From a virus: DNA of 64,000 bases. The stretch lies in IMG/VR virus record IMGVR_UViG_3300045988_036168; one strand, 5' to 3'. Both the position numbers and the translations under genes were made by a program. The notes beneath the pieces were generated by a model. It worked only from the letters and a program-made list of their open reading frames with translations. It was not told the origin of the DNA and made no database searches. Below, in pieces: positions 1 to 57,452 of the stretch; the stretch's first letter is position 1; every line of letters starts with the position of its first letter.

Positions 1-673
1 GGGGCGTATTCGTGGATACGGTGCCGTCATCAGAGACCAAGAGTGTAGAGGGAAGAACCAAAGCGGGGCGGATGCCGAACGAGTAGGATGCGTAGTAGTG
101 GCTGCAGCCGCCATCGGTGAGGACGACCCACACGTAGTTGGTGTTGATGGTGAGCGGGGAGCGGAGCCACCAGCCGGCGGCCGATCCGTTCAGGTACGCA
201 ACTCGCTTCGAGTCTGCATTATTGGTGACGCACGAAGCAAAATAGCTCAGTACAGCACCTTCGCCAGAGTCGATATAGCTGTGCTCGTAGTGAACTTCAG
301 GGGCGCTCAGCAAGAAGATCTTGCAAGGCAAACCGTTTGCTCCCTGCTGCGTCGTACCACCAGAACCGCCGTTCTTGCGATACGGGAGCTTTACCTGCTT
401 GATTGCGCCCTGAATGTTGCTATCAAACAGTTTCAAGAACGTGTTGTTCAGGTAAGAGTGGATGTCGCTGCTTTCGTACTTGTTGATATTTCCGCTCTGC
501 CAAACGCGGTTCTCGTAGATGTCCTTCATCAGCAGCCAAGTGCCGTTGCAAGACTCGTCGTACACGCTGGACGGCTTGCCCTGATGCACGACGATGAACT
601 CTCTCGCCTTGCCGTTGACCGTCAGCTTGACGGTACTGCCAACGGCCTTGGTGCTCAAAAGCACATTTGCCAT
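1..673 (-). CDS. DGR target protein 1, partial (3' end beyond window); WWLRSP...GIRPAL variable-domain framework (C-type-lectin-like / DUF6273-like, from memory)
   Basis: ATG 673-671 with AGGAGG at 687-682; hand translation MANVLLSTKAVGSTVKLTVNGKAREFIVVHQGKPSS...LNGSAAGWWLRSPLTINTNYVWVVLTDGGCSHYYASYSFGIRPALVLPSTLLVSDDG stays open to nt 1; absent from ORF track because truncated. Confidence 0.8.
   Translation of the reverse strand, partial: MANVLLSTKAVGSTVKLTVNGKAREFIVVHQGKPSSVYDESCNGTWLLMKDIYENRVWQSGNINKYESSDIHSYLNNTFLKLFDSNIQGAIKQVKLPYRKNGGSGGTTQQGANGLPCKIFLLSAPEVHYEHSYIDSGEGAVLSYFASCVTNNADSKRVAYLNGSAAGWWLRSPLTINTNYVWVVLTDGGCSHYYASYSFGIRPALVLPSTLLVSDDGTVSTNTP
32..62 (-). promoter_or_regulatory. 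Conserved post-VR flank (candidate IMH-associated target-recognition element), copy 1
   Basis: 25/31 nt identical to 48210-48240 next to VR2, incl. identical 12-mer AGAGACCAAGAG (+ strand) 19 nt from both repeats; sequence next to TR (2120-2150) is unrelated. Confidence 0.5.
63..185 (-). repeat. DGR variable repeat VR1
   Basis: Gap-free 123-bp alignment to TR (offset 2088); 21 mismatches by hand count, all at + strand T of TR (= coding-strand A). Confidence 0.9.
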
Positions 674-696: not shown

Positions 697-1902
697 TTAA
701 GAGTCAGCCCACGGAGGAACGTCCGTGGGGCGTTGGGCATAAGAAAAGGAGCCGGATTTCTCCGTCTCCCTGTTCTGATGCTGTTTCTTGTAGAGGTTGC
801 GGCATTGGCAAAGCCTTCGCTTATCGCGTACCGCACGGTTTCCGTTGAGTTTCCGGTGGATCTCCACCGGCTCACCGATGATAGCCTCCACCTTCTTTGC
901 GTATTTCGCCCGCAGCTCGTGCGTATCGCCGTATGCCGCGTGTGCGTCCCACGCTCCGAAACTCTGGAGGATAGCGTCCTTCGTAACCTCGCCGCGCTTG
1001 TAGGCTTCCTCCCAGAACTTCACCTTCGCACGGATTCGCTGGATGCTGTCCCGTCGAAGTTTCTGGATGATGCCACCGCTTTCGGTAATGTACGAATGGA
1101 AGCCGAGGAAGTCGATGCCGTTCCTCAGCGGAAAGATGCCAGTCTTCTGGTTCAGCTCCAAACCCCAGCCGTCCATCAGCGCCCGAATGTCCTTCAGGAT
1201 CTCCTTCAACCGCTGTTTGTCTGAGAGGATGACGTAGAAGTCATCCATGTATCGCCCGTAATACTTCAGGCGGTATTTCTCTTTCATCAGGTGGTCGAAC
1301 TCGTCCAGAAACATCAGAGCGAGTAGCTGGCTGGTCTGGTAGCCGAGGGGTAGCCCGTCGGTCGTATTGATGTAGACGCACAGCAGATCATAGATCTGCG
1401 GGTCTACGCCACGCTTATCGAGCAGCGCCTTTAGTTTGCGTTTCAGCTTGTCGTGGTCGATGCTGGCGAAGAAGTGATGCACGTCTCCTTTGAGAATCCA
1501 CCCATTGGTTCCTTGCCTCTCCCGCCGGTAGTAATCGACCATGTGCTGCTTCAGCCGCATCAAACCATCGTTGGTGCCCTTACCGGTCTGACTGGCGAAA
1601 TTGTCCCGAATGAAGCTCTTCGTGATGGCTTCATACAGGATGTTGTCCACGACCGCATGGAGGACGACTTTGTCCACGAACGCGGGTGCTTGGACGAGCC
1701 GCTTCTTCGGCTCATAGACATAAAACACCTCAAACCTGCTCGGAACGTAGGTCTTGGTGCTCAGGATCGTTGACAGCTTCTTGGTACAGGCCAGAACATT
1801 CGCCTCGTACTGGGCGGTTCCCGGCTTTGACCGTTTCCGCTTTCTGGCCTCCAAGTAAGCTGCGTACAGCGTTTCAAAGCTGCACATCTCTTGATAGGTC
1901 AT
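697..1902 (-). CDS. DGR reverse transcriptase
   Basis: Start MTYQEM at 1902 (ORF 697..2139 trimmed); motifs SQTGKGT, LPLGYQTSQ (DGR-type GxxxSQ), YMDDF; TR lies 248 nt upstream. Confidence 0.9.
   Translation of the reverse strand: MTYQEMCSFETLYAAYLEARKRKRSKPGTAQYEANVLACTKKLSTILSTKTYVPSRFEVFYVYEPKKRLVQAPAFVDKVVLHAVVDNILYEAITKSFIRDNFASQTGKGTNDGLMRLKQHMVDYYRRERQGTNGWILKGDVHHFFASIDHDKLKRKLKALLDKRGVDPQIYDLLCVYINTTDGLPLGYQTSQLLALMFLDEFDHLMKEKYRLKYYGRYMDDFYVILSDKQRLKEILKDIRALMDGWGLELNQKTGIFPLRNGIDFLGFHSYITESGGIIQKLRRDSIQRIRAKVKFWEEAYKRGEVTKDAILQSFGAWDAHAAYGDTHELRAKYAKKVEAIIGEPVEIHRKLNGNRAVRDKRRLCQCRNLYKKQHQNRETEKSGSFSYAQRPTDVPPWADS
708..729. repeat. Palindromic hairpin motif CCCACGGA-N6-TCCGTGGG (copy 1 of 3)
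   Basis: 8-bp perfect stem; 13-mer GGAACGTCCGTGG (716-728) identical to 57421-57433; related copy 12376-12393; sits in the last codons of the RT gene, 35 nt before the target ATG. Confidence 0.6.
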
Positions 1903-2150
1903 AAACTCGCTTCTTTGCTGTTGTTGCTTCCTCTGGTCTGGGTATAGGGCAAGCTCCAGACCAGCCATCACTCCTAACACCGGTCGTCTTGCCCCCGGCA
2001 GCCGCAGCATCCAAGTCGGGATGGCGAGCCTCGGTGTGATGTGTTTATCGTCCATCCATGCACAGACGGGCGACAGGATATGACTCCCTTTGATGATGGT
2101 GTACTGTGTTCGTCCCATCGGAGGGATTACTAATCTCACTTTCCATCAGA
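1903..2150 (-). ncRNA. TR-RT spacer, presumed part of the DGR RNA
   Basis: 248-nt gap (in-frame upstream extension of RT ORF has no RBS); 9-bp hairpin 1933-1941/1956-1964; role inferred from the BPP-1 DGR, where the spacer after TR primes cDNA synthesis. Confidence 0.4.
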
Positions 2151-2273
2151 GCGGGGCGGATGCCGTTCGAGTTGGATGCGTTGTTGTTGTTGTAGTTGCC
2201 ATTGGTGTTGACGTTCCACACGTTGTTGGTGTTGTTGGTGTTCGGGGAGCGGAGCCACCAGTTGGCGGCCGAT
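2151..2273 (-). repeat. DGR template repeat (TR)
   Basis: Coding-sense reading AANWWLRSPNTNNTNNVWNVNTNGNYNNNNASNSNGIRPA (16 Asn codons); master copy matching VR1 (123 bp) and VR2 (109 bp). Confidence 0.9.
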
Positions 2274-2321
2274 GCGAGTCATACCCTAACTCAAGGCGGA
2301 TGCCTCCGCCATGAACCCTGA

Positions 2322-2912
2322 TTACTTCCGTGCGGACTGGGCTGCGGAGCAAGCGGACATCACCAGATTGTAGAGGCTCCTGTCCTCCTTTTCCTTCGCT
2401 TCCGAACGGAGCTTGTTGGCTCTGCCGCGGTCTCCCTTCAGCCACGCCATCGCCATATACTTGACGTCTGTGACTTTCTTGGTCCAGACGCCCGCCTTCT
2501 TCACGCTGATGATGCCTTCGTCCATACAGATCGTGATATACTCCAGCAGCAGGGAGCAGCCGTCCACCACTTCCTCGATCTTGTGGATTCTATCCTCATA
2601 CGCCACCACGAAGTTCGTGTTGTTGGCGCGATGGATGTCCGTCAGGATCTTTTTCGCGGTTTCGCGCATATCCTCTCCATACATTCGGAAGGTACTCTTT
2701 GTGAAGCCCTCCTTGTCCTTGGTGTCAAGGACGTGTACGACCTCTTGGCAGACCATCTTGACATCGCAGATGTCGTCGAGCTCGGCAACCCGTGTGATAA
2801 TTGCTCGAACGTCGGCCTTGCTGATGTCGCCGGAGACAACTCTCGTCGCCTGCTTGGTGTACTTCAGAAGCTCCCTTGCTCTGTTGCCAAGCAGAAACTC
2901 CTTATCGGCCAT
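2322..2912 (-). CDS. Putative DGR accessory protein (Avd-like helical bundle with N-terminal extension)
   Basis: 196 aa directly upstream of TR; ANNTNFVVAYEDRIHKIEEVVDGCSLLLEYITIC...VTDVKYMAMAWLKGDRGRANKLR resembles the Avd pattern with a basic C-terminus; longer than typical ~120-130 aa Avd. Confidence 0.4.
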   Translation of the reverse strand: MADKEFLLGNRARELLKYTKQATRVVSGDISKADVRAIITRVAELDDICDVKMVCQEVVHVLDTKDKEGFTKSTFRMYGEDMRETAKKILTDIHRANNTNFVVAYEDRIHKIEEVVDGCSLLLEYITICMDEGIISVKKAGVWTKKVTDVKYMAMAWLKGDRGRANKLRSEAKEKEDRSLYNLVMSACSAAQSARK

Positions 2913-43678: not shown

Positions 43679-44851
43679 TTATGACGATGCTTTGAAGTTG
43701 TAGATGGGCCTGATAATCTCCAGCACGTCGCAGGTCGGGCCGATGCAGCCCATGATCTCCTTCGTGTCCTTGTAGGCGAACGGCGCCTCGTCTATGGTGT
43801 CGTAGCTGATACAGGAGCTATGCACGTTCCGCATCGTCTCTCGGTAGGCTCCGAGAGAAATAGACTCTCGGGCTTTGCTGCGGGACATCAGGCGGCCAGC
43901 TCCATGCGGTGCCGACTGGTTCCAATCGTCGTTGCCCTTGCCGACGCAGATCAGAGAACCGTCGCGCATATTCATCGGAATAATCAGGCGCTCGCCCTTC
44001 TTAGCAGACACAGCACCTTTCCGCAGGATCATGCTCTCGTGGTCAATGTAGTTGTGCACGGTCGTAAACTGCTCCTGCGGGACGATGTGCATAGCTTTCA
44101 GGATGGCCTTTGCGATGGCCTGACGGTTGGCCTCCGCATAACGCTGGATGATCTCCATGTCGTTCAGGTAATCGTCCATCAGTTCGCCGGTCAGGTACGC
44201 GAGGTCGGGTGCCCCGAAGTCGCTGTGCTGTTTTCTCAGTTCTTCCAGCGCACCGGCGATTTCCTTCTGCCGGCCAGCAGCCTTGTACTCGGTGACAACA
44301 CGGCTGATTTCCTCACTGGTGGGCTTTGTCATGGCCTCCATCGCTCTGCGCTGGTGCCAGTTCGCCACCTCAAGGCCGAGCTTTCGGCTGCCGGTGTGGA
44401 TCACCAGCCAGAGGCCGCCGCTCTTATCCTTGTCAACCTCGATGAAGTGATTGCCACCGCCGAGCGTCCCGATGCTGAGGAGCGCACGGCTGTTGTCGAT
44501 GCCGACGCATTTCAGGCCGCTCAGGTCGAACCACTCCTTCGGGTAGTTGTGAGTACAGAAACCGGCCGGCACATTCCAGCGGATGGCCTTGTCCAGCTCG
44601 TCAAGGTCGAGCCTCACCCGCCCCAGCTTGACGGCCAGCATACCGCAGCCGATGTCCACGCCCACGAGGTTCGGGCAGACGCGGTCGTGAATGGTCATCG
44701 TCGTTCCGATAGTACACCCAGCGCCGGCGTGAACGTCGGGCATGATCCGTACCTTGGAGCCGTCACTCACGGGATGGCGGGACAGCTTCTCAATCTGCTC
44801 CGTCGCTTCCTGCTCGATGGTCTTCGCAAAAATCTTCACATCATTGGTCAT
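43679..44851 (-). CDS. rtcB: RNA 3'-phosphate/5'-OH ligase RtcB
   Basis: PDVHAGAGCTIG, GCGM, GGGNHFIE, HTGSR, PHGAGR motifs. Confidence 0.9.
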   Translation of the reverse strand: MTNDVKIFAKTIEQEATEQIEKLSRHPVSDGSKVRIMPDVHAGAGCTIGTTMTIHDRVCPNLVGVDIGCGMLAVKLGRVRLDLDELDKAIRWNVPAGFCTHNYPKEWFDLSGLKCVGIDNSRALLSIGTLGGGNHFIEVDKDKSGGLWLVIHTGSRKLGLEVANWHQRRAMEAMTKPTSEEISRVVTEYKAAGRQKEIAGALEELRKQHSDFGAPDLAYLTGELMDDYLNDMEIIQRYAEANRQAIAKAILKAMHIVPQEQFTTVHNYIDHESMILRKGAVSAKKGERLIIPMNMRDGSLICVGKGNDDWNQSAPHGAGRLMSRSKARESISLGAYRETMRNVHSSCISYDTIDEAPFAYKDTKEIMGCIGPTCDVLEIIRPIYNFKASS

Positions 44852-44863
44852 CGTCTTTTCCTT

Positions 44864-45637
44864 TCACTCGCTCCACGGAAACTCTGTGATAATGTCGTCA
44901 CCCCAAATGGGCTTCATACTGTCTTTCATGAACACCGGCTTCCCGGTCGAGCGAGCGTATTCGACAACAGCCTCGATCCACTCGCGTTTCGGAGTGACTT
45001 TGCCTTTCCGGTTTCCTGTTTCAGCTCCGAGTATGAACCAGTCGATGTTCTTCATCTCGTCAGCTACAATCTTTCCGTCGAACGAGCCGAGAACCGGCTC
45101 CATGCTCGCAAAGGTGTGGTGCCGATCAGACCAGAACATCGGCATTTCGTCATCGGTCGCCGTAGATCCGTACCAGTAATCATCCCCCTCCGGCAGCAAG
45201 CCAGCTTTGTAGAGGTCGATGTACCGCTGCGGGTTCTTTGTGAGGAACAGGTATCTGTGTCCGGGAGCTTCCTTGCAGGCGTCGAACACCTTCTTGATCC
45301 ACTCGTCAGGCACCCAGTCCCCGAACAGGTCGGCCATCGAACAAACGAAAATGGTCTTTCCAAGCCCCTTCGTCAACGGGTCGTTGAGGCGGTACTCGTG
45401 GAACGTCGGCGTAAAGCCGAAGGGGTAGGCCGCGTTTCTGGTGACACCGTCCTTGCTGGTGACGGTCAGGCGTTCCTTCAGGTACACCACGTTCTCGTCA
45501 GTCTCTCCACCGGCCGCACAGTCGCAGCCTTTGAAGCGGTTCGCGGTCGATCTGGCATAGCAATACGGACAGGAATGATAGCAGCCGCTCACGGGATTCC
45601 ATGTGCTGTCGCACCACTCGATCTTACTCTTTTCCAT
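44864..45637 (-). CDS. phage Gp37/Gp68 (DUF5131) protein with radical-SAM-like Cx3Cx2C
   Basis: IEWCDSTWNPVSGCYHSCPYCYA N-terminus. Confidence 0.7.
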   Translation of the reverse strand: MEKSKIEWCDSTWNPVSGCYHSCPYCYARSTANRFKGCDCAAGGETDENVVYLKERLTVTSKDGVTRNAAYPFGFTPTFHEYRLNDPLTKGLGKTIFVCSMADLFGDWVPDEWIKKVFDACKEAPGHRYLFLTKNPQRYIDLYKAGLLPEGDDYWYGSTATDDEMPMFWSDRHHTFASMEPVLGSFDGKIVADEMKNIDWFILGAETGNRKGKVTPKREWIEAVVEYARSTGKPVFMKDSMKPIWGDDIITEFPWSE

Positions 45638-45651: not shown

Positions 45652-46089
45652 TCAGAACGGGAGTTCGCCGGCGTCATCATCGGCAATCTCCGAAAAATCT
45701 CCGCTTGGCTGCTGGTAGCCGTTGTCGTAACCGCCGCCATAGCCGCCGCCAGACCGATTGCCGCCGTCCTTGTTGCTGTCCCCGAAATAGACATTGTCAG
45801 CCACAACCTCCGCGCTGCGGCGGTTATTGCCCTCCTTGTCCTTCCAGTCGCGGATCTGGAGCCGGCCTTCCACGACGGCCATGCGCCCCTTCGTGAAATA
45901 CTTGCTCACGAACTCGGCGGTGTTTCTCCACGCGACCACGTCGATGAAGTCCGTTTCTTTCTCGCCGCCCTGCCCCTTGAAGTCGCGGTCAACGGCCAGC
46001 GCAAACGAGGTCACGGCCGTCCCGCTTCCGGTGCGCCGCAGTTCGGGGTCACGGGTCAATCTGCCCATCAAGATTATCTTGTTCAGCAT
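45652..46089 (-). CDS. ssb: single-stranded DNA-binding protein
   Basis: MLNKIILMGRLTRDPELR OB-fold start, Gly-rich linker, acidic tail DDDAGELPF. Confidence 0.9.
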   Translation of the reverse strand: MLNKIILMGRLTRDPELRRTGSGTAVTSFALAVDRDFKGQGGEKETDFIDVVAWRNTAEFVSKYFTKGRMAVVEGRLQIRDWKDKEGNNRRSAEVVADNVYFGDSNKDGGNRSGGGYGGGYDNGYQQPSGDFSEIADDDAGELPF

Positions 46090-46777
46090 TCTCGGTATCT
46101 TCCTTTCGTTTCAGTCTGTATAGCTTGCACAGGTGCTTATCCAGCAGGACGCCTCTCGTGAGGTGGTGCTTCTTCTGGAACGTCAGCCACCCTATTACGT
46201 GGACTTCGGAATGGTGCTCCCTGCAAAGCGGGAGCACCTCCATTCCCTCGTGAATGATCTCCTCGCGGTCGCGGCCCGCGCCGACATGATCGACGTGGTG
46301 CAGGTCGCACGGTTTCCCGCAGATGCAGCACTTCTTGCTCACCAAGCAAGCGTACACATAGTCCTGAACATCATCCACGAAATCGAGCAGAGAGAAGCTG
46401 CACGGAATGTCCCAGTCGAGGATGAACCGCACCAAAAACCGCTGGAACGCACACACAAGGCTCATAGGGGCGTTGCTCAGGGAGAACATCTGGTCAGCCG
46501 TCTCCTGCAGGTCTTCTGCGATGAACTTCAGCTTCATGTACTCCTTGGTCGGGTCAAGCCCCATGCCGGTGTAGTTCGAGATCTCTCGAATGAGCTTGTA
46601 ACAGGTGCGCCTCTGCTTATCGGACAGCGGGCGGCTGTCGATCATCTGGATATTGCACTCCTTGTACTCGCGCTTCAGGAGCATCGGCCAGTCGTCGTAG
46701 CGGGCCTTGATGGTCACGATGCCGTGCTTGTCGATGTCAACGATCCTACCTCGCACTATGTCGATTGGGCTTTTCAT
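46049..46777 (-). CDS. HNH-type nuclease-motif protein (DUF968-like)
   Basis: CCICGKPCDLHHVDH...LPLCREHHSEVH. Confidence 0.55.
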   Translation of the reverse strand: MKSPIDIVRGRIVDIDKHGIVTIKARYDDWPMLLKREYKECNIQMIDSRPLSDKQRRTCYKLIREISNYTGMGLDPTKEYMKLKFIAEDLQETADQMFSLSNAPMSLVCAFQRFLVRFILDWDIPCSFSLLDFVDDVQDYVYACLVSKKCCICGKPCDLHHVDHVGAGRDREEIIHEGMEVLPLCREHHSEVHVIGWLTFQKKHHLTRGVLLDKHLCKLYRLKRKEDTENAEQDNLDGQIDP

Positions 46778-46810
46778 GCCAGCCCTCCTCTCTGCTCAAA
46801 TCGCGGTTCG

Positions 46811-47800
46811 TTACGCCTCGGGTTCGTCGTACTCGTAGCCGTTGGGCTCGTTCTCGTCAGCAGGCTCCTCGGTGACAGGCTCTTCCTCTGCGGCAGCGTC
46901 GGTCGCATCCGTCTCCTCGGTCGGCTCCTCTTCGCCCGAAGCCTCTTCCTCGGCGGCACCCTCCATGCCGACATGGGGAGAGTCGATGTCGAACAGAACC
47001 TCGCTGCAATCCTCACACTCAATGGAGATGTTCACGATCTCGTCATCGCCGTAGCCGACGCACACGACGGCGTGACCGACATGGGGGCTCAGCTTCTCAG
47101 CGGAGCAGTAGAACGGGTTCTCGGGGCTGGTCGCGGAGGACAGGACAACCTTGTTGCCCTGCGTACGGACGGTGTAATTGCCCATCGCCTCGGTGACGTT
47201 CATCGTCTCACCGATGAACTGGCGGAGCCAACCGAAGGGCTTGGACGGATCATGCGCGGGGTCGATGGCTTTCTCCTCAAACTCGCCAGCAGCGTCAGGA
47301 GTGGCATCCTCTGCGTCTGCGGGTGCAACTTCCTCTCCGTTGATGACGTGGCTCTCTGAGGCCGCAGGAAGCCCTCTGGGCCCTTCGTCAACGACGTCAT
47401 ATTGGGTGTTGGCGAAGTCAGCAGAATCGCCGTCACCATCAAAGAGTGTGGTCTGGCCGTTGTCGATGTCGCGGTAGAAATACTGGCCGCTGGCCTTATC
47501 GAAGACCAGCTCGAAGTTACCGGAGAAGCTGCCGCTCTTCTTCTCCTTGCGCTGGATGACGTAGGCGACGGTGTGGTCGAACTTCGGCTTCGTCACCTCT
47601 CTGGTCTGATGGCCGCCGGCCACGGTGTAGTCGGGGGCCGAGTCATCGGTGAGGGTGATTTTGACCTTAATGTTGATCTCGCCGGTGTTCTGCTCCGTCT
47701 CGATCATGCCAGCCAGCACGTCGCGGAGCGTGGTGTCGAAGTCAGCGCACAGGCTGTTGAAAGCCTCGCCTCTCAGGGACAGAGAATAGTCCTTGCTCAT
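46811..47800 (-). CDS. hypothetical protein with strongly acidic C-terminal tail
   Basis: Start MSKDYS (RBS AAGGAGG); tail EEEASGEEEPTEETDATDAAAEEEPVTEEPADENEPNGYEYDEPEA. Confidence 0.5.
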   Translation of the reverse strand: MSKDYSLSLRGEAFNSLCADFDTTLRDVLAGMIETEQNTGEINIKVKITLTDDSAPDYTVAGGHQTREVTKPKFDHTVAYVIQRKEKKSGSFSGNFELVFDKASGQYFYRDIDNGQTTLFDGDGDSADFANTQYDVVDEGPRGLPAASESHVINGEEVAPADAEDATPDAAGEFEEKAIDPAHDPSKPFGWLRQFIGETMNVTEAMGNYTVRTQGNKVVLSSATSPENPFYCSAEKLSPHVGHAVVCVGYGDDEIVNISIECEDCSEVLFDIDSPHVGMEGAAEEEASGEEEPTEETDATDAAAEEEPVTEEPADENEPNGYEYDEPEA

Positions 47801-47814
47801 GGTATTTTCCTCCT

Positions 47815-48045
47815 TCATTTTGTCGTGTCGCGGATGTACTTGTTTCGGCAGGCTTCACAGCAGAAGTCGTGCCACTCGCCATCCACCTTCGTCGTGATCC
47901 ATCCGAGCCGCTCCCGCAGCTCTTTCCGGTGGGCCTTCGAGTCGATGTCCTCGCTATCGAACGGGAACGAAACGTCCTTGCCACAGCAGTCGCACGAGTA
48001 CACGGCTTCGCCTTCCCAATAGCCGCTAAACTCCAGATCTCTCAT
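47815..48045 (-). CDS. small Cys-rich (zinc-ribbon-like) protein
   Basis: CDCCGK...FCCEACRNKY; 76 aa. Confidence 0.45.
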   Translation of the reverse strand: MRDLEFSGYWEGEAVYSCDCCGKDVSFPFDSEDIDSKAHRKELRERLGWITTKVDGEWHDFCCEACRNKYIRDTTK

Positions 48046-48755
48046 TCGTCCGTCCCATCCTCGCCCATGAAGACCGAGCCGGCCCGCATCGCTCTGCGCT
48101 GGATCTCCTCCAGCAGCGTCGCCGTGCTGATGCCGTCAAGGCTGGGCAGGCCATTGCCGCCGCAGCAGTCGCATTCGCCGCAGCAATCTTCCTCAACCTC
48201 GTCGTCCAAAGAGACCAAGAGGTCAGAGTTAAGAAGCAAAGCGGGGCGGATGCCGTTCGAGCTGGATGCGTAGTAGTTGACGTAGTAGCCATCGGTGCTG
48301 ACGTACCACACGAAGCTGGTGTCGTAGGTGATCGGGGAGCGGAGCCACCGACACGCCCAAGGCGTGACGAGCCAGTACCAGTCATCCTCGTTCAGCGGGA
48401 TCAACTCCTTGAACTGGCCGTACTGCCAGAGCGTCAGGGGCGCCGCCTTGACCGTGATGGTGCCGTAGCTCTTGCTACGGTCGGTGCAGCTCAGATCCAC
48501 CTCAAACGGGAGAATGGCCGCGGCCTCCTCCGATGTGCGAGGCAGGGCCTCCACCCACTTGTCGATGCGCTCCTTCAAGGTGGAGCGGGTGTAGTCGTTG
48601 CGGTTCTCCGCATCGTCCTTGTCGTTGAACGGGCAGGACTCCTTGCTCTGAGCCAGCAGGACGAACGTGGAGCCGTCGCGCTGTTCCATAACAACGAACT
48701 TTTCACCGGCGAAGTTGAAAATGCGGCCGGGGCTGAGTTTTGCGAGTTTCTTCAT
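48042..48755 (-). CDS. DGR target protein 2 (remote), same WLRSP...GIRPAL framework, Cys-rich C-terminal extension
   Basis: Contains VR2; ...WACRWLRSPITYDTSFVWYVSTDGYYVNYYASSSNGIRPALLLNSDLLVSLDDEVEEDCCGECDCCGGNG...; lies in the replication/recombination operon. Confidence 0.8.
   Translation of the reverse strand: MKKLAKLSPGRIFNFAGEKFVVMEQRDGSTFVLLAQSKESCPFNDKDDAENRNDYTRSTLKERIDKWVEALPRTSEEAAAILPFEVDLSCTDRSKSYGTITVKAAPLTLWQYGQFKELIPLNEDDWYWLVTPWACRWLRSPITYDTSFVWYVSTDGYYVNYYASSSNGIRPALLLNSDLLVSLDDEVEEDCCGECDCCGGNGLPSLDGISTATLLEEIQRRAMRAGSVFMGEDGTDE
48210..48240 (-). promoter_or_regulatory. Conserved post-VR flank, copy 2
   Basis: See 32-62; same 12-mer at the same 19-nt spacing from the repeat end. 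Confidence 0.5.
48241..48349 (-). repeat. DGR variable repeat VR2 (remote)
   Basis: Gap-free 109-bp alignment to TR 2151-2259; 15 mismatches by hand count, all at + strand T of TR; homology ends at 48350. Confidence 0.85.
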
Positions 48756-48764
48756 GATTGCCTC

Positions 48765-49187
48765 CTATTCTGTTTCCTGAATTGTCACGACAACCCTCGG
48801 GTCGTCGCTGAAGAACTTTCTTACCTGTGCGTCTACAATCTGGGCGTCATCGTGATAGGCGATGTCGTTCAGGGAGTCGCACACGATTTTGCCGATGTTG
48901 TCGAAGTCGGGCTTCTTCATCGGTCTGATTTTCCGCTCGCGCATGAGCTGCGCTCTCTTTTTGCTGACACTTTTGGGGATGCCGTAGTACGCCGTGATGC
49001 GCACATCAAGCGGTGTGTCCTTGGGGAACTTGAAGTCGTTGCATTGACGGCGGTATTCGAGCCTGACGAGGTTCTCATAGCTGACCGTCTTCTCCGGTGT
49101 GTAGGGCTGAACAAACGCGCCAGCGTTTCGGAATCGCGGCCTGCCTTTGCCCGCCGGTTCTCCAAGGACGGAAAACTTCAGCTTCAT
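48765..49187 (-). CDS. rusA: RusA-family Holliday junction resolvase
   Basis: Start MKLKFSV (RBS GGAGGGGG); GKGRPRF...DFDNIGKIVCDSLN pattern. Confidence 0.75.
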   Translation of the reverse strand: MKLKFSVLGEPAGKGRPRFRNAGAFVQPYTPEKTVSYENLVRLEYRRQCNDFKFPKDTPLDVRITAYYGIPKSVSKKRAQLMRERKIRPMKKPDFDNIGKIVCDSLNDIAYHDDAQIVDAQVRKFFSDDPRVVVTIQETE

Positions 49188-49378
49188 TTTGGTATCTCCG
49201 CCCCCTCCACCATCGTCTCGCCAATCCAATACTTGACGAGGTATTCGTTGCTTCTCCCGTCCTTCTTCTGCTTCACGGGCTGGACGGAATACCCGTTTCG
49301 GAACAGGATCGAGGCGACCGTCACGCGGTCGGCTTCACTCCCGATTTTGAGGTAGAAGACCTCTTTACTCCCCACCAT
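49184..49378 (-). CDS. hypothetical protein
   Basis: Start MVGSKEV; 64 aa; ATGA-type overlap with rusA. Confidence 0.35.
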   Translation of the reverse strand: MVGSKEVFYLKIGSEADRVTVASILFRNGYSVQPVKQKKDGRSNEYLVKYWIGETMVEGAEIPK

Positions 49379-49550
49379 GTTCAGACTCCTCGCTGAGTTT
49401 GAACTGCGGGCCCCACGTTGCAACGATGTGGCGACTCTCCTGATCGACGAACGCGAGCTTCCCGTCGTAAATCGTCATGTTCAGCTTGTACTTGATACAG
49501 GCTCTCTCGACGTCAGCGATAAGATGCTGTACCCGCTGCTTCATTTCCAT
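49365..49550 (-). CDS. hypothetical protein
   Basis: Start MEMKQRV (RBS AAGGAG); 61 aa. Confidence 0.35.
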   Translation of the reverse strand: MEMKQRVQHLIADVERACIKYKLNMTIYDGKLAFVDQESRHIVATWGPQFKLSEESEHGGE

Positions 49551-49563
49551 TTGGCTTCTCCTT

Positions 49564-50451
49564 TCAGTCAATATCGAACAGCTTCTCCATCTCCGTGAAC
49601 CGCCGGCTGGCTTCCTTCTTCCGCCAACTCGGGCCGGTGAACTGCATCGAGTAGCAGGTCTCGAAGATGCGGTCATAAATGCGGCTGTACCGTCTGTCCT
49701 TCTCGTCCTTCATCTCGTCGATGGTCAGGTTCGTGGTCAGGAGCATCGGGAGCTTCCGCCGATACCGGCTGTCGATGATGTTGTAAATCTTCTCAAGCGC
49801 ATAATCGGTGTTGCGCTCAGCACCCAGATCGTCGAAGATGACCAGCTTCGCGCTGTTCATCCGGGCGATGATGTCGCTCTCCTTCTCCTCGCCGCCCTGA
49901 ATGAGTTCCAGCAGCTTCACAAGGGAGGTCATCATCACGGGGACGCCGCGGTTCAGCAGGTGGTTGGCGATACAGGCGGCCGCAAAACTCTTGCCCGTGC
50001 CAACGCTTCCCCAGAAAATCAAACCCTGATTTTTGGACACCATCTCGTCGAACGCCTCAGCGTATCGGCGGCACAGCTTCAGATTTCGGGCGTTGTACTT
50101 CGTGACTTGGAAGCTGTCGAAGGATGCCTCGCGGAGCTTTTCATCCATGAGGCTCGCCTTTTTCAGACGGGCGACACGCTCCATGTCCTTTTTGTTCTGC
50201 TCGGCCTGCTTCTCGGCAGCCTCCTTGTCGCGGTCGCACTTGCAGGAGCGGGTGGCCTTGAACGTCATCTTGTTCTCGGGGTTGCCCTCCATCGGAGCGG
50301 ACACCGTCACCATCCCCTGCCTCGGCTCGCCGCACTTCCCGCACATGAGCATTCCGTCATCGTCGAACCAATCGCCGTGGCGGATCTCCTGCCGTTCAAG
50401 CCCTTGGGCGGCAATACGGGGCAAAATGGTCTGCGGGTCAAATCCTTGCAT
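49564..50451 (-). CDS. DnaC/IstB-like AAA+ helicase loader
   Basis: Walker A GSVGTGKS, Walker B VIFDDLG. Confidence 0.8.
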   Translation of the reverse strand: MQGFDPQTILPRIAAQGLERQEIRHGDWFDDDGMLMCGKCGEPRQGMVTVSAPMEGNPENKMTFKATRSCKCDRDKEAAEKQAEQNKKDMERVARLKKASLMDEKLREASFDSFQVTKYNARNLKLCRRYAEAFDEMVSKNQGLIFWGSVGTGKSFAAACIANHLLNRGVPVMMTSLVKLLELIQGGEEKESDIIARMNSAKLVIFDDLGAERNTDYALEKIYNIIDSRYRRKLPMLLTTNLTIDEMKDEKDRRYSRIYDRIFETCYSMQFTGPSWRKKEASRRFTEMEKLFDID

Positions 50452-50454
50452 TTG

Positions 50455-51321
50455 TCATTCCTCCCCGTATTCCGCAAACGGATTTTTGTTGTCGGGCACC
50501 GCGTCCTCGGGCGGCTGGGCTTTCTTCTTATCTGGCAGATAGTCAAGGAACGGCCGGCTGTCGCTCAGGAACGTCTTCGGGTGCTTGATGTACTGCTTCT
50601 CGGTGCCGAGCCTCTTGCACTGGGTCGCATAGTTCCGAGCGGCCATCAGCAGCTCCTCCGGGGAGAAGCCCTCATGGATGCGGGCCTGATACTTCTTGAA
50701 GGCGTTGCCTTTCTCAGCCTTTTTCGGGTATGCGTCCCAGAACTCGTCGAAGGTCGGCGTGTACTTTGGCGTTGCCGGTTCCGCAGGGGGCTTCGGCGGT
50801 TCAGGAGGCTCGGTCGGCGCTTTTTCGGCTGCGGGAGTCTCTCCCCCGTCGATTTTAAGCTGCTTTTCCTCGCCGTCCGCGGGACCGTCCGTGTGACCGT
50901 CCTTCGCCGCATCCGCTTTTTCCTCGTTTTGGGCCGCCGCTTTGCTGTTCCGCCGACTCTCGCGCTTGCGGGCAGCGTCGCGCTCTCGGGCATCCTTGGC
51001 CTTTTGCCATTGGGCTTGCCAAGTCTCCCAGTCGTGGATGCAGATTCCGCGAGGCGACCAGTCGAGCCAGCCGCTATCGAAGAGTGCATCCACGATTTTC
51101 TTCGGATCGAGCACACAACCTGCGCCGACGCCGTACAGGTATCGCTCGATGTCCTCTTTTTCTGCATACAGTATGAGCCCGTCCCTCTCAGCGTTCGTAA
51201 GCCCCCAGAACCACAAGAAGTTCAGGATGCCCGTCGCCTCGAACTTTGAGCAACCGAGCTGCTTATACAGATTCCGCAGCTTCGGCCCGTCGATACTTTC
51301 GTGTACGCTGATCCATGCCAT
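50455..51321 (-). CDS. replisome organiser / DnaD-like replication protein
   Basis: N-terminal MAWISVHESIDGPKLRNL...FLWFWGL pattern; upstream of loader; basic/acidic linker. Confidence 0.5.
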   Translation of the reverse strand: MAWISVHESIDGPKLRNLYKQLGCSKFEATGILNFLWFWGLTNAERDGLILYAEKEDIERYLYGVGAGCVLDPKKIVDALFDSGWLDWSPRGICIHDWETWQAQWQKAKDARERDAARKRESRRNSKAAAQNEEKADAAKDGHTDGPADGEEKQLKIDGGETPAAEKAPTEPPEPPKPPAEPATPKYTPTFDEFWDAYPKKAEKGNAFKKYQARIHEGFSPEELLMAARNYATQCKRLGTEKQYIKHPKTFLSDSRPFLDYLPDKKKAQPPEDAVPDNKNPFAEYGEE

Positions 51322-51366: not shown

Positions 51367-52296
51367 TCACTCTTTACCGGGGAAATCGGGCTGGTCGCTG
51401 GCAGGAACGGTATCGCTTGCTTCCTGCGGAGCTTCGGGTTCAGGCTTCTTCTCCTGAGCCATTTCCATGACCTTTTCGGTGATGCGGTGATACACAGACG
51501 TAGGCAGGCCCTCCGTGGACTCGTAGCCCTCGGCGGCCAGCAGGGATTTCAGGATGCCGTTCGCTTCCTGTCCGAAGGCGCTCGTCGCCATCTTGAAAAG
51601 CGTCTGACGCTGATCCTGCGTGATGGGTTCATCCTTTTCAGCCTCGGTCACTTCGCCGGTAGCAGGATCGACCACCAGAGCGAAGCCATCCGTCGGAAGC
51701 TCGCCCATGTCGAGGACTTCCTCCTGACTGTAAATGCCCATAATCATATCGGGGCAGTTCATGCGGCCAAAGAACGAAGCGGCGCGGTACTGGATCATCA
51801 CGTCGGGCATGGTCTTCCACTTGCTGCCGTTTTTGCTCGTCCAGCCTTCGTCGTTCGCCATATTCATCGTGATTTTCGGGCCGTAGACCTTGTGGCCGGA
51901 GTAATCCTCTGCCCAAGCGCGGCAGCTCAGGCCGCCGTCGGCTTTGTCGCGGCCGAACTCGAACTGCAGCTCGGTCTTATACCGGCGGCTGCTGTTAATC
52001 ATGGCGATGATCCACTGGCTCGACCACGCAGGGCGCCCGTTGACGATGTAGAGGTTCTGCATCACCATCATCGGACTGGTGTTGATGCGAGATGCCATCT
52101 CAATAGCGATCATGCAGTTGCCGACGTTTCCGTGGTACTCCTTGGGGACTACCGTAGACGACGCAAGGCACTGGGCCATGCGCAGAGCCGTATTGAAGCT
52201 CGCGCCGTCAGCGAAGACGCTCAAGGCTCCCCCGCCGGCCGTTTTCTGAGCCACAGCCCCAGCGGGCGCCGTGCTCAGTTTGTTTTCGTTGCTCAT
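51367..52296 (-). CDS. single-strand annealing recombinase (RecT/Red-beta-like)
   Basis: NLYIVNGRPAWSSQW and SKWKTMPDVMIQYRAASFFGR patterns; paired with exonuclease. Confidence 0.65.
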   Translation of the reverse strand: MSNENKLSTAPAGAVAQKTAGGGALSVFADGASFNTALRMAQCLASSTVVPKEYHGNVGNCMIAIEMASRINTSPMMVMQNLYIVNGRPAWSSQWIIAMINSSRRYKTELQFEFGRDKADGGLSCRAWAEDYSGHKVYGPKITMNMANDEGWTSKNGSKWKTMPDVMIQYRAASFFGRMNCPDMIMGIYSQEEVLDMGELPTDGFALVVDPATGEVTEAEKDEPITQDQRQTLFKMATSAFGQEANGILKSLLAAEGYESTEGLPTSVYHRITEKVMEMAQEKKPEPEAPQEASDTVPASDQPDFPGKE

Positions 52297-52321: not shown

Positions 52322-53068
52322 TTACCGGGTGCTGACGCTGGTGGTGTATGTTTCGCGGAACTTGATACCGGGTATCTCGACCTGGCCCTTGGACATCTTA
52401 ATCAGGCGGAGCACCGCAGCCTTATCGACCGGGCGCAGCTCAATGCCAACGAGGGACACGGGAACCTTAGACCAGTCGCACTCGGACTCGCAGATTTCCC
52501 ACGTCTTGCTCTGGGAGATGCCCTTGACCTTGGGCGTCTGATGCTGGACGCCACCGGCGATGGACACCCCTTCCATCATCTCGGCTTCGGCCATAGCGTA
52601 CTCTGCGCCAACAGCGTCACCGTTAGCCTCAGCTTCGGCAGCTTCATTCAGGTGGCGGTCGATCTCGGCCTGAGCCAGTCGGCGCATGGCCTCCTCCTGC
52701 TCACGGCGCTTGCGCTCCTGCTCCGCGCTGTACTCGTTCACCTTGGTCTTGACGATCTTCTCCGCCTTTTCCAGAGGCTCAATCATTTCCTTTCTGTGGT
52801 TCAGAACCTCGTCGTAGCTCTTCTTGGCGGACACGCGGAGAGGCTCCCAATAGTCATTGACCTGCTTCTGGGCCTGCTTGATCTGCTTCAGGAACAGGCC
52901 AGCGTCCTCGAAATCCGCTCCAGAGGCGACGACGACCGCTTCGGCCCGCTGCTCAATCAAGCTGACTTCTTTGCCGAGCTTGCTCTCTTCAGCGTTCATC
53001 ACGGTCACGTTCTCTTCTGCGGTGTCAAGGACAAGGGCATTGCTTCCGATGGTCTTTGCGTCGTTCAT
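52322..53068 (-). CDS. hypothetical coiled-coil protein
   Basis: Start MNDAKT (RBS AAGGAG); between exonuclease and SSAP. Confidence 0.45.
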   Translation of the reverse strand: MNDAKTIGSNALVLDTAEENVTVMNAEESKLGKEVSLIEQRAEAVVVASGADFEDAGLFLKQIKQAQKQVNDYWEPLRVSAKKSYDEVLNHRKEMIEPLEKAEKIVKTKVNEYSAEQERKRREQEEAMRRLAQAEIDRHLNEAAEAEANGDAVGAEYAMAEAEMMEGVSIAGGVQHQTPKVKGISQSKTWEICESECDWSKVPVSLVGIELRPVDKAAVLRLIKMSKGQVEIPGIKFRETYTTSVSTR

Positions 53069-53086
53069 ACTGACACTCCTTTTCAT

Positions 53087-53704
53087 TTATTTGTAAGACT
53101 GTTCATAGTCGTACAGACATTTCAGCGCCCCGACTACGCGGCATCTGGCGGGGTCTTTGGCCGGGAACTCGCGGAACGACCACTTCCCGTCCTTTTTCAG
53201 ATGCAGGATGTGCTTTCTCTGCGGTGTGATGCCGTGGGAAATAAGTGCCTGCGAGTAGGCTTCAAGCTGGACACCGCAGGCCATTTCCAGCAGCGTGTAC
53301 GTCGTCTTGAAGTCGATAAGCTCCAGCAGGCCGCCAATCTCGCAGAGCAGGTCAATCGTCCCGCCGTAGCGCATCAGCTTATGGTAGATGCGCACCTCAG
53401 AGCCGAAGACCCGCGGTTTATACTGCTTCCACCACTCCACGAAGCCGTTGAAGTAGCCGCGATGCTCCGACGGAATATCGTCGATGCCGAACTTGATCCA
53501 GTTCTCGATGCTGTTATGCACCGCAGAGCCTTTGATGGCGGCGTTCTCAAGCGTCCGCTTGCTGATACCGCCGTAGCACTGGTCTTTCAGCGGCTCCATC
53601 AGCTTCGACACGCTCGGGATGATGTCGCCGTTCAGCCGGTAGATATGGCTGGCCTCGTCGAAGGTCAGCTCGGGCAGTTCAGGAACCTCAACCGTCATAC
53701 CCAT
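53087..53704 (-). CDS. PD-(D/E)XK exonuclease (recombination partner)
   Basis: GTIDLL...ELIDFKT = D..ExK motif. Confidence 0.65.
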   Translation of the reverse strand: MGMTVEVPELPELTFDEASHIYRLNGDIIPSVSKLMEPLKDQCYGGISKRTLENAAIKGSAVHNSIENWIKFGIDDIPSEHRGYFNGFVEWWKQYKPRVFGSEVRIYHKLMRYGGTIDLLCEIGGLLELIDFKTTYTLLEMACGVQLEAYSQALISHGITPQRKHILHLKKDGKWSFREFPAKDPARCRVVGALKCLYDYEQSYK

Positions 53705-53936: not shown

Positions 53937-54169
53937 AAGTTTCTCCTCCCAATCGCATTGATTCTCTCGCGCATCACATAATCTTCCAGCTCGTTTCTGA
54001 ACAGGAGCGGCACATACGCCTCGTCCTTGCCGTTCAGGTCTGCCTTGCGGACGGTGTGCTGCATGATGGCGACCATGTCATCCACATCGAACCAGAAGCC
54101 GGTCTCGTTCTGGACGTCCACGATGATGTTTCCCAGCTCCTCGGTGTTCAGCTTCGCCGTGTCGATCAT
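53903..54169 (-). CDS. hypothetical protein
   Basis: Start MIDTAK in ATGA overlap with upstream stop. Confidence 0.4.
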   Translation of the reverse strand: MIDTAKLNTEELGNIIVDVQNETGFWFDVDDMVAIMQHTVRKADLNGKDEAYVPLLFRNELEDYVMRERINAIGRRNLCATSVCTALA

Positions 54170-54894
54170 GCCAGCACCTCCGCCCATGCGTCCGCGTATT
54201 CCATCACCGTGCGGCTGTACGACGTGGTCGTGTAGCCTTTGCTGAAGACGTGCTCCTGAGCGCCGCCCTCGCCGTAGTTGTAACAAATCAAGGCTTTGTG
54301 CCAGTCCCCGTACTTCCCATACAGGTCGCTCAGGATGAACACGCCAGCGCGGATATTCTGGTACGGGTCAGTCAGATCCGTGACTCTGATTTTCTCGGAC
54401 AGCCATTCGGAATTGATGCTGTTGATCTGCATATAGCCGTAGCAGCTTCCGTTTGCGGCTGTGGCCGTGAACGAGCTTTCGGCCTGAATGACGCCCAGAG
54501 CCACGTTCTGAGGGACGCCGTATTCTTCGCAGACCGCAATCAGATGGCACTGCAGGTCGAAGTCCAGCGGGATCTCCTCATGCAGATAGCCTTGCTCCAG
54601 CAGAGCGGCCTCGATTTTCTCGTTCTCGTCCTCTTCCTCTACGGGTTCCGGTTCCTGAGTAGGCTCTGCCGTCATCTGGACGTGCTGATATGTACTGTCG
54701 TGCTCTGCGACCAGCAGAACCGGCTCAGCCTGCAATGCGGGCGGCTGCGGTGTTGGTTCGGGCACCGTTTCGGCTGCCCCCCCCCCTGTCAGGGCTACGA
54801 TGCTGGCCGTGGTCATCGCCAGCACGGCCGCTGTGGTCGCCAGCTTGATTCGCAAGATGCGGCGGCGTCTTCTTCGCCGTTCCATTCGGGTCAT
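54166..54894 (-). CDS. membrane-anchored lytic transglycosylase (SLT domain)
   Basis: AESSF...GYMQI catalytic pattern; Arg-rich N-terminus plus hydrophobic segment. Confidence 0.75.
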   Translation of the reverse strand: MTRMERRRRRRRILRIKLATTAAVLAMTTASIVALTGGGAAETVPEPTPQPPALQAEPVLLVAEHDSTYQHVQMTAEPTQEPEPVEEEDENEKIEAALLEQGYLHEEIPLDFDLQCHLIAVCEEYGVPQNVALGVIQAESSFTATAANGSCYGYMQINSINSEWLSEKIRVTDLTDPYQNIRAGVFILSDLYGKYGDWHKALICYNYGEGGAQEHVFSKGYTTTSYSRTVMEYADAWAEVLA

Positions 54895-55029: not shown

Positions 55030-55545
55030 CTACTTTGATCCATGGGCATCACCATCTTCGTTCAGAGCCATCTCTCCGATGGTCTTCAGCTCGCTCACGG
55101 TCTTTGCCAGATCGTCGAGGTAGGCCAAAACCTCTTGAAGCGCCGGTTTCTCGTCTTCGGTGATTTTCCCGTCAGCCGCGATGTCAAGGAGCGTGTCCTT
55201 GACATCTCCGAGCTTTTCGGTCTTCAGGCTCTTCAGCAGCTTGACCGTCACGCGGTCAATGCCCACCACTTCATCGGAGAGCGAATGCCTGCATCCAATC
55301 GGGCACTCGTTCAAGCAGTAGTGGTTCAGCAGCCACGGGGCGTTGTACCTGTCAGCCATGAGCACCGCCTTATCGACCGGCATGAACTTTGTGTTCCCCA
55401 GCTCTGCATCTGCCAGCGAAGATACCGACATTCCGAGTTGCTCAGCCGCGCTCTCACGGCTACATAGCCTGTCATCATATTCAGCAGCCTTTTTTCTGGC
55501 TTGATACCACGGATTTCCCGCCGCTTTCGTAGCGTCACGTCCCAT
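55030..55545 (-). CDS. XRE-family HTH regulator
   Basis: SAAEQLGMSVSSLADAELG HTH; first gene of the early leftward operon. Confidence 0.6.
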   Translation of the reverse strand: MGRDATKAAGNPWYQARKKAAEYDDRLCSRESAAEQLGMSVSSLADAELGNTKFMPVDKAVLMADRYNAPWLLNHYCLNECPIGCRHSLSDEVVGIDRVTVKLLKSLKTEKLGDVKDTLLDIAADGKITEDEKPALQEVLAYLDDLAKTVSELKTIGEMALNEDGDAHGSK

Positions 55546-55926: not shown

Positions 55927-55955
55927 ATTATAATTATCCACGTGGCTAATGTCAA
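55927..55955 (-). promoter_or_regulatory. consensus sigma-70 promoter (leftward) with operator in the spacer
   Basis: Minus strand TTGACA - 17 nt - TATAAT; the 17-nt spacer is almost entirely operator motif ATTATCC-ACGT-GGCTAAT (55933-55950). Confidence 0.7.
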
Positions 55956-55986
55956 TAGTTTTTTGCAGTTTTATCGCAAAAAATGT

Positions 55987-56015
55987 TTGCGATTTTACCC
56001 AAAGAGCTTTACAAT
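55987..56015 (+). promoter_or_regulatory. sigma-70 promoter (rightward) for the cI-like gene
   Basis: TTGCGA - 17 nt - TACAAT, 41 nt upstream of ATG 56057. Confidence 0.6.
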
Positions 56016-56056
56016 GGCTAATACAAACAATCACGCTGGCAAAGGAGAAGCACATC

Positions 56057-57364: not shown

Positions 57365-57416
57365 GGTTACGTTACGTTTACGGTATAGGTTACGGTTACG
57401 GTATGGTTACGGTTAT
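57365..57416. repeat. Hexanucleotide tandem array (GGTTAC)n, copy B
   Basis: GGTTAC and degenerate units; 57378-57401 identical to 12302-12325. Confidence 0.85.
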
Positions 57417-57420
57417 ACAC

Positions 57421-57452
57421 GGAACGTCCGTGGATTTTTGGTCGGACGTTCC
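57421..57452. repeat. Perfect 10-bp inverted repeat with 12-bp spacer, 32 bp upstream of int (attP-core or operator candidate)
   Basis: GGAACGTCCG-TGGATTTTTGGT-CGGACGTTCC. Confidence 0.6.

Follow-up and report, generated by a model that had tools for sequence, protein, structure and literature searches.

We analyzed a 64,000-nt stretch of viral DNA (IMG/VR record IMGVR_UViG_3300045988_036168; the whole stretch is called the window below) that carries a diversity-generating retroelement (DGR); we found that its template repeat (TR) has copies in two genes: one variable repeat (VR1) in a large gene beside the DGR cassette, and a second (VR2) in a small gene that lies far from the cassette, among replication and recombination genes. 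VR2 is very probably an active, remote second target of this DGR that belongs to a known small-target family. The window belongs to a prophage whose host is an Oscillospiraceae bacterium; the small target is 92% identical to a gene in Oscillibacter sp. UBA8280 and Clostridiales bacterium CCNA10. A megablast search with window positions 46000-51000 found no near-identical DNA in GenBank phage records, which means that none of the deposited isolates is this very phage.

The template repeat, its two copies and their variation

The repeat copies were located by a sensitive blastn search of the small-target region (48042-48755) against the whole window, which gave three: about 25-171 (VR1), 2147-2259 and 48203-48349 (VR2). 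The second of these was taken as TR because it is adenine-rich and lies immediately upstream of the reverse transcriptase (RT) open reading frame (ORF). Over the 109 bp that pair VR2 48241-48349 with TR 2151-2259, the two differ at 15 positions, every one of which (15/15) is an adenine in TR (nine A>T and six A>G). As TR has 36 adenines among these 109 nt, the hypergeometric probability that all 15 would fall on A is 5.5e-9. VR1 differs from TR at 19 positions, again all at adenines (19/19). The VR2 peptide ends ...WLRSPITYDTSFVWYVSTDGYYVNYYASSSNGIRPAL, where TR reads ...WLRSPNTNNTNNVWNVNTNGNYNNNNASNSNGIRPAL in the same place. An earlier account made from the letters of this DNA (hereafter the sequence-only reading) had described the same 109-bp match (48241-48349) with 15 adenine-only differences, and the same two peptides, all of which we recovered by alignment and translation. 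Its further claim, that one RT and one TR serve two genes about 46 kb apart, is supported; the TR-VR2 offset is 46,090 bp. VR2 uses TR 2147-2259 and the VR1 match reaches about 2275, that is, some 16-20 nt further 5', so VR2 corresponds to a shorter portion of TR.

In the extended match, the sole non-adenine change is a C>T at TR 2149, common to VR1 and VR2. Mismatches outside TR adenines, which the sequence-only reading had named as evidence that would tell against it, come down to this lone change, and it sits at the boundary. DGRs carry a distinction between IMH and IMH* (initiation of mutagenic homing sequences) at the 3' boundary, and the change at TR 2149 appears to be the kind of single-base TR/VR difference expected there. 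After the GC-rich 3' end, GGCATCCGCCCCGCT, both VRs have a T where TR has a C, likewise in phage FP_Brigit, and the boundary common to both VRs reads ...GGCATCCGCCCCGCT-T-TG.

The DGR is complete, with RT, Avd and TR all present (Table 1). Within this RT ORF, homology to other RTs begins near aa 71, which makes an internal true start probable. The protein is about 66% identical to the DGR RTs of FP_Toutatis, Lelie and FP_Brigit, and contains LGYQTSQ and YMDD, which we take to be DGR-RT signatures. The visible 224 aa of the VR1 protein comprise a complete N-terminal DUF6273 domain (E 7e-36), and match phrog_10993 ('Hoc-like head decoration'; E 5e-61) over the N-terminal 262 of 556 profile positions. 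On these matches, the VR1 gene is assigned the architecture described as 'tentaclin' by Baykov et al, 2023 (PMC10743442), and its immunoglobulin (Ig)-domain part would fall outside the window. By homology to the established DGR mechanism, Avd and RT would reverse-transcribe TR RNA, misincorporating opposite template adenines, and the mutagenized cDNA would then replace any VR bearing a matching 3' boundary (IMH-like) sequence. Since this boundary is common to VR1 and VR2, retrohoming could act in trans on both the tentaclin gene and the gene 46 kb away.

Variation among related genomes points to a repeat that is in use. In IMG/VR, 26 loci carry target orthologues that are 78-97% identical, from which 24 distinct genes were compared. 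Each of the 36 TR-adenine columns of VR2 is variable (36/36, mean variability 0.42), as against 5/73 non-adenine columns (mean 0.013) and a mean column variability of 0.044 outside VR2. In a large protein database, the target had 768 matches at E <= 1e-5; 120 matches were listed (91-95% identical), and 104 of those were aligned (A1). All 104 have distinct VR2 peptides and the remaining protein is nearly invariant. The consensus of the 104 sequences is WLRSPxTxxTxxVWxVxxxGxYxxxxASxSxGIRPALLL, with essentially all other columns invariant. An unvarying VR2 across populations, which the sequence-only reading had given as the sign of a dead repeat, is thus decisively contradicted by both comparisons. 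A copy that was re-homed not long ago is suggested by one orthologue (L007), in which no more than 9 A-changes are present. Taken together, VR2 appears to be currently diversified, judging from differences between genomes.

The variable positions are not interchangeable. They show position-specific preferences, such as Tyr-rich sites and N/D at residue 155, an indication that selection acts on a working surface. At residue 158 (window 48282-48284), where TR has a TAC Tyr codon, 37/104 variants (36%) have Cys (TGC), and Cys likewise occupies the corresponding place in VR1 of the window (GGCSHYY). A disulfide between such a Cys and a nearby Cys was suggested by Baykov et al (PMC10743442).

Some further observations were made on the repeats. 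Six loci of one tail variant of the target (variant C, described below; L022-L026 and L029, on different contigs) encode one and the same VR2 peptide, FTRDTYYVWFVGFDGDYFSNYASGSGG, with L027 as the sole exception; the explanation is either a lineage whose DGR is inactive or missing, or clonal copies of a single prophage. At L021 (IMGVR_UViG_3300007292_000073, 6001-6621), the VR2 gene runs after ...GIRPAL into the sequence that follows TR (MESEISKPFDGSNTVHHHQRESYP...) instead of its own tail; upstream synteny (DnaC...RusA) is intact and there is no downstream match. Two explanations offer themselves, a chimeric assembly across the ~110-bp repeat and a genuine recombination between TR and VR2. 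The ~100 nt downstream of TR, the 'spacer' of the DGR RNA, are conserved between the window (2040-2150) and FP_Brigit (L004, 35023-35130), including CATCATCAAAGGGAGTC.CATCCTGTCG, and contain a putative short CCC...GGG hairpin whose loop and flank bases differ between the two. A conserved RNA structure in this spacer was considered and dropped, as the minimum-free-energy fold of the window sequence differs from that of the Brigit sequence.

The small target protein and its family

The small target matches phrog_9958 over its full length (aa 2-222, E 3.9e-51), and on this match we consider it a member of the published 'tgt2' or 'small DGR target' family. Pfam matches DUF6273 at E 1.4e-5, for the last 40 residues of the domain only, which is the VR end. 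An AlphaFold2 model built on a 66-sequence family alignment (mean pLDDT, the predicted local distance difference test score, 89.7) and Foldseek searches with it gave a single DUF6273 domain with the VR at its C-terminal hairpin and no Ig domains. In the model, VR2 maps to strands of the C-terminal beta-hairpin region (aa 137-173; beta-strands at 148-176), in agreement with the published 'hypermutated hairpin' (PMC10743442). Among PDB structures, the model is matched best by an IgA peptidase from T. ramosa (9qa6, E 1.8e-5), which has at its N-terminus a DUF6273 domain with no function assigned (PMC12402451). Weak matches with a C-type lectin fold come next and include the C-terminal domain of Legionella Lcl, snake-venom CLECs and mannose-binding protein, and the structure matches in BFVD are DUF6273 phage proteins. 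Residues 1-30 lie inside the fold (pLDDT ~97), so there is no signal peptide, as the sequence-only reading had it; across the family, the DUF6273-type domain begins at residues 1-10.

The sequence-only reading had also pointed to a Cys cluster and a helical tail after the VR. Both are present. The Cys cluster does not hold as a conserved feature: sister lineages have a different Cys pattern, and many family members have none. As the cluster also falls in a low-confidence linker (pLDDT ~52), we rejected it as a functional metal site or a defining feature of the protein. The family comprises 166 clusters at 50% identity (E <= 1e-10), mostly of 180-300 aa. Many members have an acidic linker followed by a short helix with the approximate motif LSxxsTxxLLxE[IV]xRR. 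A hidden Markov model (HMM) of this motif matched 35/150 family representatives (P0121-P0270 range) and 0 shuffled controls, at a median of 5 residues from the C-terminus, and within each phage genome searched it was confined to the small targets. That the helix motif occurs in about a quarter of the family representatives is an addition of the present analysis. Some members have an alternative tail (W..Y[IL].YL..W...SP..F.EW) and others are tail-less.

Two ideas about the helix were tried and set aside. The motif as a docking site common to another protein of the same phage was rejected because it was found only on small targets, and a supposed likeness to the first helix of SAP, HeH or Rho_N is unsupported, as a Pfam scan of the C-terminal tails matched no family at E <= 10.

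Three types of tail occur in the lineage to which the window belongs, and tail type and the variants of the downstream zinc-ribbon and acidic genes change together. L012, L014-L018, L028 and L022-L029 were set against window 47815-49229. In DNA, the identity of the pre-VR domain is 94-95% between lineages in which the RusA proteins are 71% and the zinc-ribbon proteins 65% identical, and still 91% in variant C, where the neighbors are unrelated. L012 is a mosaic with its junction at or just upstream of the target. With neighbors that are diverged or unrelated, the pre-VR domain therefore behaves as a conserved, mobile cassette. In variant C, a convergent 311-aa gene lies just downstream of the small target (L022 6856-7791, minus strand) and matches the C-terminal part of phrog_37900, a family also matched by the window VR1 protein. 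This gene, which ends the tail/lysis operon, may encode one more protein of DUF6273 type and could be an additional DGR target.

Genomic position and possible roles

A gene map was drawn from PHROG and Pfam scans of the window (Table 1). It bears out the placement given in the sequence-only reading, with the target outside the virion module, between rusA and a zinc-ribbon gene, among early genes. The TGA of the target overlaps the ATG of the zinc-ribbon gene (ATGA), so the latter may be translationally coupled to it. The candidate early promoter points leftwards to the target and overlaps the start of the divergent CI-like repressor gene, and 55927-56395 looks like a lysogeny switch. A consensus scan of the minus strand from 55630 to 44580 found no terminator-like sites, hence none between 55630 and the target. 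Gene order and consensus signals thus support the description 'early replication/recombination operon', and from its position the target would be transcribed together with these genes.

Table 1. Coordinates of the features of the window
Feature	Position	Strand	Details
Large target, 5' part (tentaclin / 'Hoc-like')	1..673	minus	VR1 ~25-171; gene runs off left window edge
DGR RT ORF	697..2139	minus	RVT_1 E 2e-19; phrog_1423 E 4e-116
TR	2147..2275	minus	Adenine-rich (AAC codons), between Avd and RT
Avd accessory protein	2322..2912	minus	phrog_3206 'Avd protein of DGR', E 3e-29
RtcB-like RNA ligase	43679-44851	minus	phrog_1075, E 4e-129
phrog_2045 protein	44864-45637	minus	L071/L072 counterpart is DUF5131
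Single-stranded DNA-binding protein (SSB)	45652-46089	minus	
HNHc_6	46049-46777	minus	
Acidic 335-aa protein	46811-47818	minus	
Zinc-ribbon gene	47815-48045	minus	TRASH / zf-FCS-like
Small DGR target gene	48042..48755	minus	237 aa
C-terminal helix of small target	48069..48125	minus	aa 211-229, motif ~LSxxsTxxLLxE[IV]xRR
Acidic linker with Cys cluster CCGECDCC (DDEVEEDCCGECDCCGG)	48126..48206	minus	pLDDT ~52-72
DUF6273 / C-type-lectin-like globular domain	48207..48755	minus	aa 1-183, pLDDT mostly >90, compact alpha/beta
VR2 core	48241..48349	minus	109 bp; extends to 48237 including 3' boundary element
RusA Holliday-junction resolvase	48765-49229	minus	PF05866, E 4e-36; upstream neighbor of target
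DnaC-like loader	49564-50451	minus	
Replisome organizer	50455-51321	minus	
RecT	51367-52296	minus	
Exonuclease	52322-53086	minus	
Exonuclease	53087-53704	minus	
SLT transglycosylase-domain protein	54166-54894	minus	PF01464, E 1.4e-18
Transcriptional regulator	55030-55545	minus	
Candidate early lytic promoter	55955->55927	minus	TTGACA-17-TATAAT, 12/12 sigma-70 consensus match
CI-like helix-turn-helix (HTH) repressor	55949-56395	+	
Serine integrase (large)	57403-59202	+	

Other genes of this region deserve mention. A 305-aa ORF without assigned identity adjoins the CI-like repressor and is followed by the large serine integrase. The SLT lytic-transglycosylase gene between the regulator and the exonucleases is in an unusual place for a cell-wall enzyme, and the early region of Toutatis also encodes a '3D domain' protein. 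RtcB-type ligases of phages might mend tRNAs that anticodon nucleases of the host have cut, which makes the RtcB-like ligase of the early block relevant to the counter-defense flavor of the operon.

We also examined where the small target lies in other lineages. In the six lineages examined, it is never inside the morphogenesis cluster and always in an early or accessory region. It directly follows RusA in the window phage and its 59%-identical relative. In Brigit, the small target (gp06) opens the early operon; in Toutatis and Lelie, it is surrounded by small ORFs and by methyltransferase and prohibitin genes, upstream of the replication-initiation genes; and in nd4, it is upstream of an exonuclease-like gene, SSB and DnaC. 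The 37%-identical homolog P0279 is in a post-lysis accessory arm with a PemK toxin, and the tail-less variant C target adjoins a MazF-like toxin and an HTH repressor-like gene. (A profile-based locus search gave no locus for P0166 and one short contig for P0184.) A target next to rusA, for which the sequence-only reading had proposed a survey of related phages, is found in the window phage and that relative, and in the other lineages examined the gene occupies other early or accessory sites. This placement in six lineages is an addition of the present analysis. The early or replication module of the small target is not discussed in the papers on two-target phages (PMC10743442, PMC11792537, bioRxiv 10.1101/2024.10.15.618418), and the words 'early', 'replication' and 'non-structural' are absent from the first of these (PMC10743442).

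Three other accounts of VR2 and its gene have to be weighed. The VR1 and VR2 proteins are paralogous, with DNA similarity persisting for about 30 nt past the TR match, and VR2 could accordingly be a decayed VR1/TR paralogue, left by duplication or gene conversion and no longer homed into; the Lelie VRs, in addition, showed no read-level variation in culture (PMC11792537). However, every TR-adenine column varies among close orthologues while the non-adenine columns and the remainder of the gene scarcely vary, and the sparsely changed L007 copy speaks for recent re-homing. The orthologue variation effectively refutes a decayed copy, which we regard as extremely improbable. A more serious contender is that the small target is a virion-associated, Mtd-like receptor-binding or adhesion protein, encoded outside the late operon and docking on the tail or capsid through its C-terminal helix. 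An Mtd-like receptor-binding role is suggested in all three papers (PMC10743442, PMC11792537, bioRxiv 10.1101/2024.10.15.618418); Baykov et al, 2023 proposed it and Egorov et al, 2024 echoed it. It would fit the C-type-lectin-like fold with a hypervariable surface hairpin, as in Mtd, and the use of one TR by the small target and the tentaclin, a protein presumably displayed on the virion. The conserved C-terminal helix might serve as the anchor, enrichment of Cys at one codon of the VR may point to a disulfide, and the second VR gene of Toutatisvirus is a core gene (98.8% of 173 phages, with the DGR in 68%), present even without a DGR, as suits an essential role in adsorption (bioRxiv 10.1101/2024.10.15.618418). 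Against it stand the early or accessory gene position in 6/6 lineages, never between terminase and tail fibers, and the overlap of the target stop with the start of an early-operon gene in the window. The protein also has no N-terminal beta-prism or beta-sandwich, by which Mtd attaches to the fiber (PMC10743442), and some family members have no tail at all. We consider a virion-associated role a genuine possibility, though not the one that we favor.

The small target might also, as the sequence-only reading proposed, be a cytoplasmic effector, made early or by the prophage, whose variable surface tracks host defense or competing phages (counter-defense or superinfection exclusion). Its contexts are of early or moron type, with neighbors that include the RtcB-like ligase, methyltransferases and MazF/PemK-like toxins, it has no signal peptide, and distal second VRs have been reported near counter-defense genes (PMC12629997). 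The argument is purely positional, however, and no homology to known anti-defense proteins turned up, PADLOC and anti-defense libraries not having been searched. We know of no precedent for a DGR-diversified intracellular phage effector, and our confidence in this specific role is low. What we prefer is the broader reading that the target acts inside the cell and not on the virion. Such a role, non-virion and intracellular, seems to us somewhat more probable than receptor binding of the Mtd-like kind, the published guess, with the cytoplasmic location assigned by gene position only; taken by itself, we give a non-virion role about an even chance.

Under the preferred non-virion reading, the target would be a soluble C-type-lectin-like ligand binder, with the DGR rewriting a surface beta-hairpin that recognizes a changing ligand, and the conserved C-terminal helix would probably tether it to an invariant partner. 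A more particular version is a cytoplasmic early binder in which the invariant helix plugs into a conserved phage or host partner and the hypervariable hairpin tracks evolving intracellular ligands; we put this forward tentatively, as rather unlikely in its full form. Several points count the other way. Nearly all phage DGR targets of C-type lectin fold that have been characterized are, to our knowledge, receptor-binding or adhesion proteins. The hypotheses published for the small-target family are of the same kind (PMC10743442, bioRxiv 10.1101/2024.10.15.618418). The Cys at residue 158, if a disulfide is right, would speak for an oxidizing, extracellular site of action. As for the DGR itself and the setting of the gene, the activity of VR2 is read from between-genome variation and not from variation within one population, by-eye inspection downstream of the VR for a BPP-1-like hairpin or cruciform found only a 4-bp GACC/GGTC stem, and the putative promoter and operon are assigned from consensus scans and gene order.

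A cytoplasmic early binder, if real, would be the first case of a phage whose intracellular effector is DGR-driven and 'adaptive'. Already in print are the two-target DUF6273 design, the remote position of VR2 and the arms-race speculation, and the window is a further example, from an Oscillospiraceae prophage. The question it sharpens is how the published Mtd-like guess is to be set against an early or accessory location, no signal peptide and an often conserved, docking-type helix. Should the small target be non-structural, phage DGR hypermutation would extend beyond receptor recognition to intracellular conflicts, and the interpretation of many DGR targets of 'unknown function' in gut viromes would change.

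Comparison with known two-target systems

The sequence-only reading implied that a two-target system was new, which is not supported: the architecture has been published for nd4/nd12 (Baykov et al, 2023; PMC10743442), Lelie/CP11 (Gulyaeva et al; PMC11792537) and Toutatisvirus (Egorov et al, 2024; bioRxiv 10.1101/2024.10.15.618418). The idea of an arms race was likewise already raised in the 2025 Nature paper that placed distal second VRs near counter-defense genes (PMC12629997). Homologs in deposited phages were found by tblastn, and comprise FP_Brigit gp06, FP_Toutatis gp24 and Lelie orf58, all three from Faecalibacterium phages, and nd4_tgt2 (29-38% identity). All four phages encode an RT that is 40-66% identical to the window RT, and Brigit, Toutatis and Lelie have the same Avd-TR-RT-'Hoc-like' cassette.

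Bordetella phage BPP-1 resembles the window in its adenine-specific TR-to-VR homing with RT and Avd, its C-type lectin target with a C-terminal VR (Mtd) and its single-base TR/VR difference at the 3' boundary. Unlike the small target, Mtd is a 381-aa protein with an N-terminal beta-prism and beta-sandwich, forms a trimer at the fiber tips, and is the sole target, in the tail module beside the cassette. In the AlphaFold2 model of the window target, by contrast, the C-type-lectin-like domain starts at residue 1 and there is no Mtd-type beta-prism or beta-sandwich, as is also true of nd4_tgt2 (PMC10743442). Nor does the window target share Mtd's location beside the cassette in a late module, as it lies in the early operon, 46 kb from TR. 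Roseburia phage Shimadzu offers another distal second target served by one DGR (VR2, orf43/44), with both VRs experimentally diversified (bioRxiv 10.1101/575076). Its VR1 is in a predicted tail gene and its VR2 in an ORF of unknown function, and in the tblastn search of deposited phages the window protein had no significant match in Shimadzu.

The nd4/nd12 phages are a closer parallel. One TR serves a large tentaclin with C-type lectin and Ig domains (target 1) and a small (~234 aa), DUF6273-only C-type lectin protein (target 2, nd4_tgt2/nd12_tgt2), for which AlphaFold models have been published and whose variation was shown across 39 and 13 related genomes (PMC10743442). As in the window, the VR is at the 3' end of the domain, on a surface beta-hairpin with short flanking helices, VR2 takes a shorter portion of TR than VR1, and the small target of nd4 is in an early operon. 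nd4_tgt2 is a direct homolog of the window protein (33% identity, E 3e-13). However, nd4 is of another phage lineage and host, its TR-VR2 distance is ~10 kb as opposed to 46 kb, and the window protein has a Cys-rich linker and an LSxxsTxxLLxEIxRR helix, the motif HMM being without a match in nd4.

That helix motif is present in Lelie and Toutatis. The small targets of Lelie/CP11 and Toutatis gp24 are ~33-35% identical to the window protein, have the VR at the C-terminus of DUF6273, and are encoded far from the RT; the second VR gene of Toutatis is 17,480 nt from TR (bioRxiv 10.1101/2024.10.15.618418). In these phages, both VRs vary across cognate genomes. TR and the small gene match over 104 bp in each, with 13 A-changes and a C>T in Toutatis, and 15 A-changes, a C>T and one T>A in Lelie. 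They differ from the window in that they are of other genera and another host family, and the gene is not beside RusA.

The closest cultured-phage homolog is FP_Brigit gp06 (YP_009797027), which is 37.6% identical to the window protein. Brigit shares with the window an integrase, a switch, the order exo-exo-RecT-organizer-DnaC-RusA-SSB, a tail module, Avd-TR-RT and the Hoc-like target, and differs in that gp06 heads the early operon instead of following RusA. The parts of the original Brigit description available to us name only the Hoc-like target (PMC5883640), so a second VR in this phage may be unreported. We located it at L001 4373-4452, inside gp06 (record 3948-4559), where TR and gp06 match over 80 bp with 7 A-changes, the C>T of the boundary and, at the 3' edge, one T>A.

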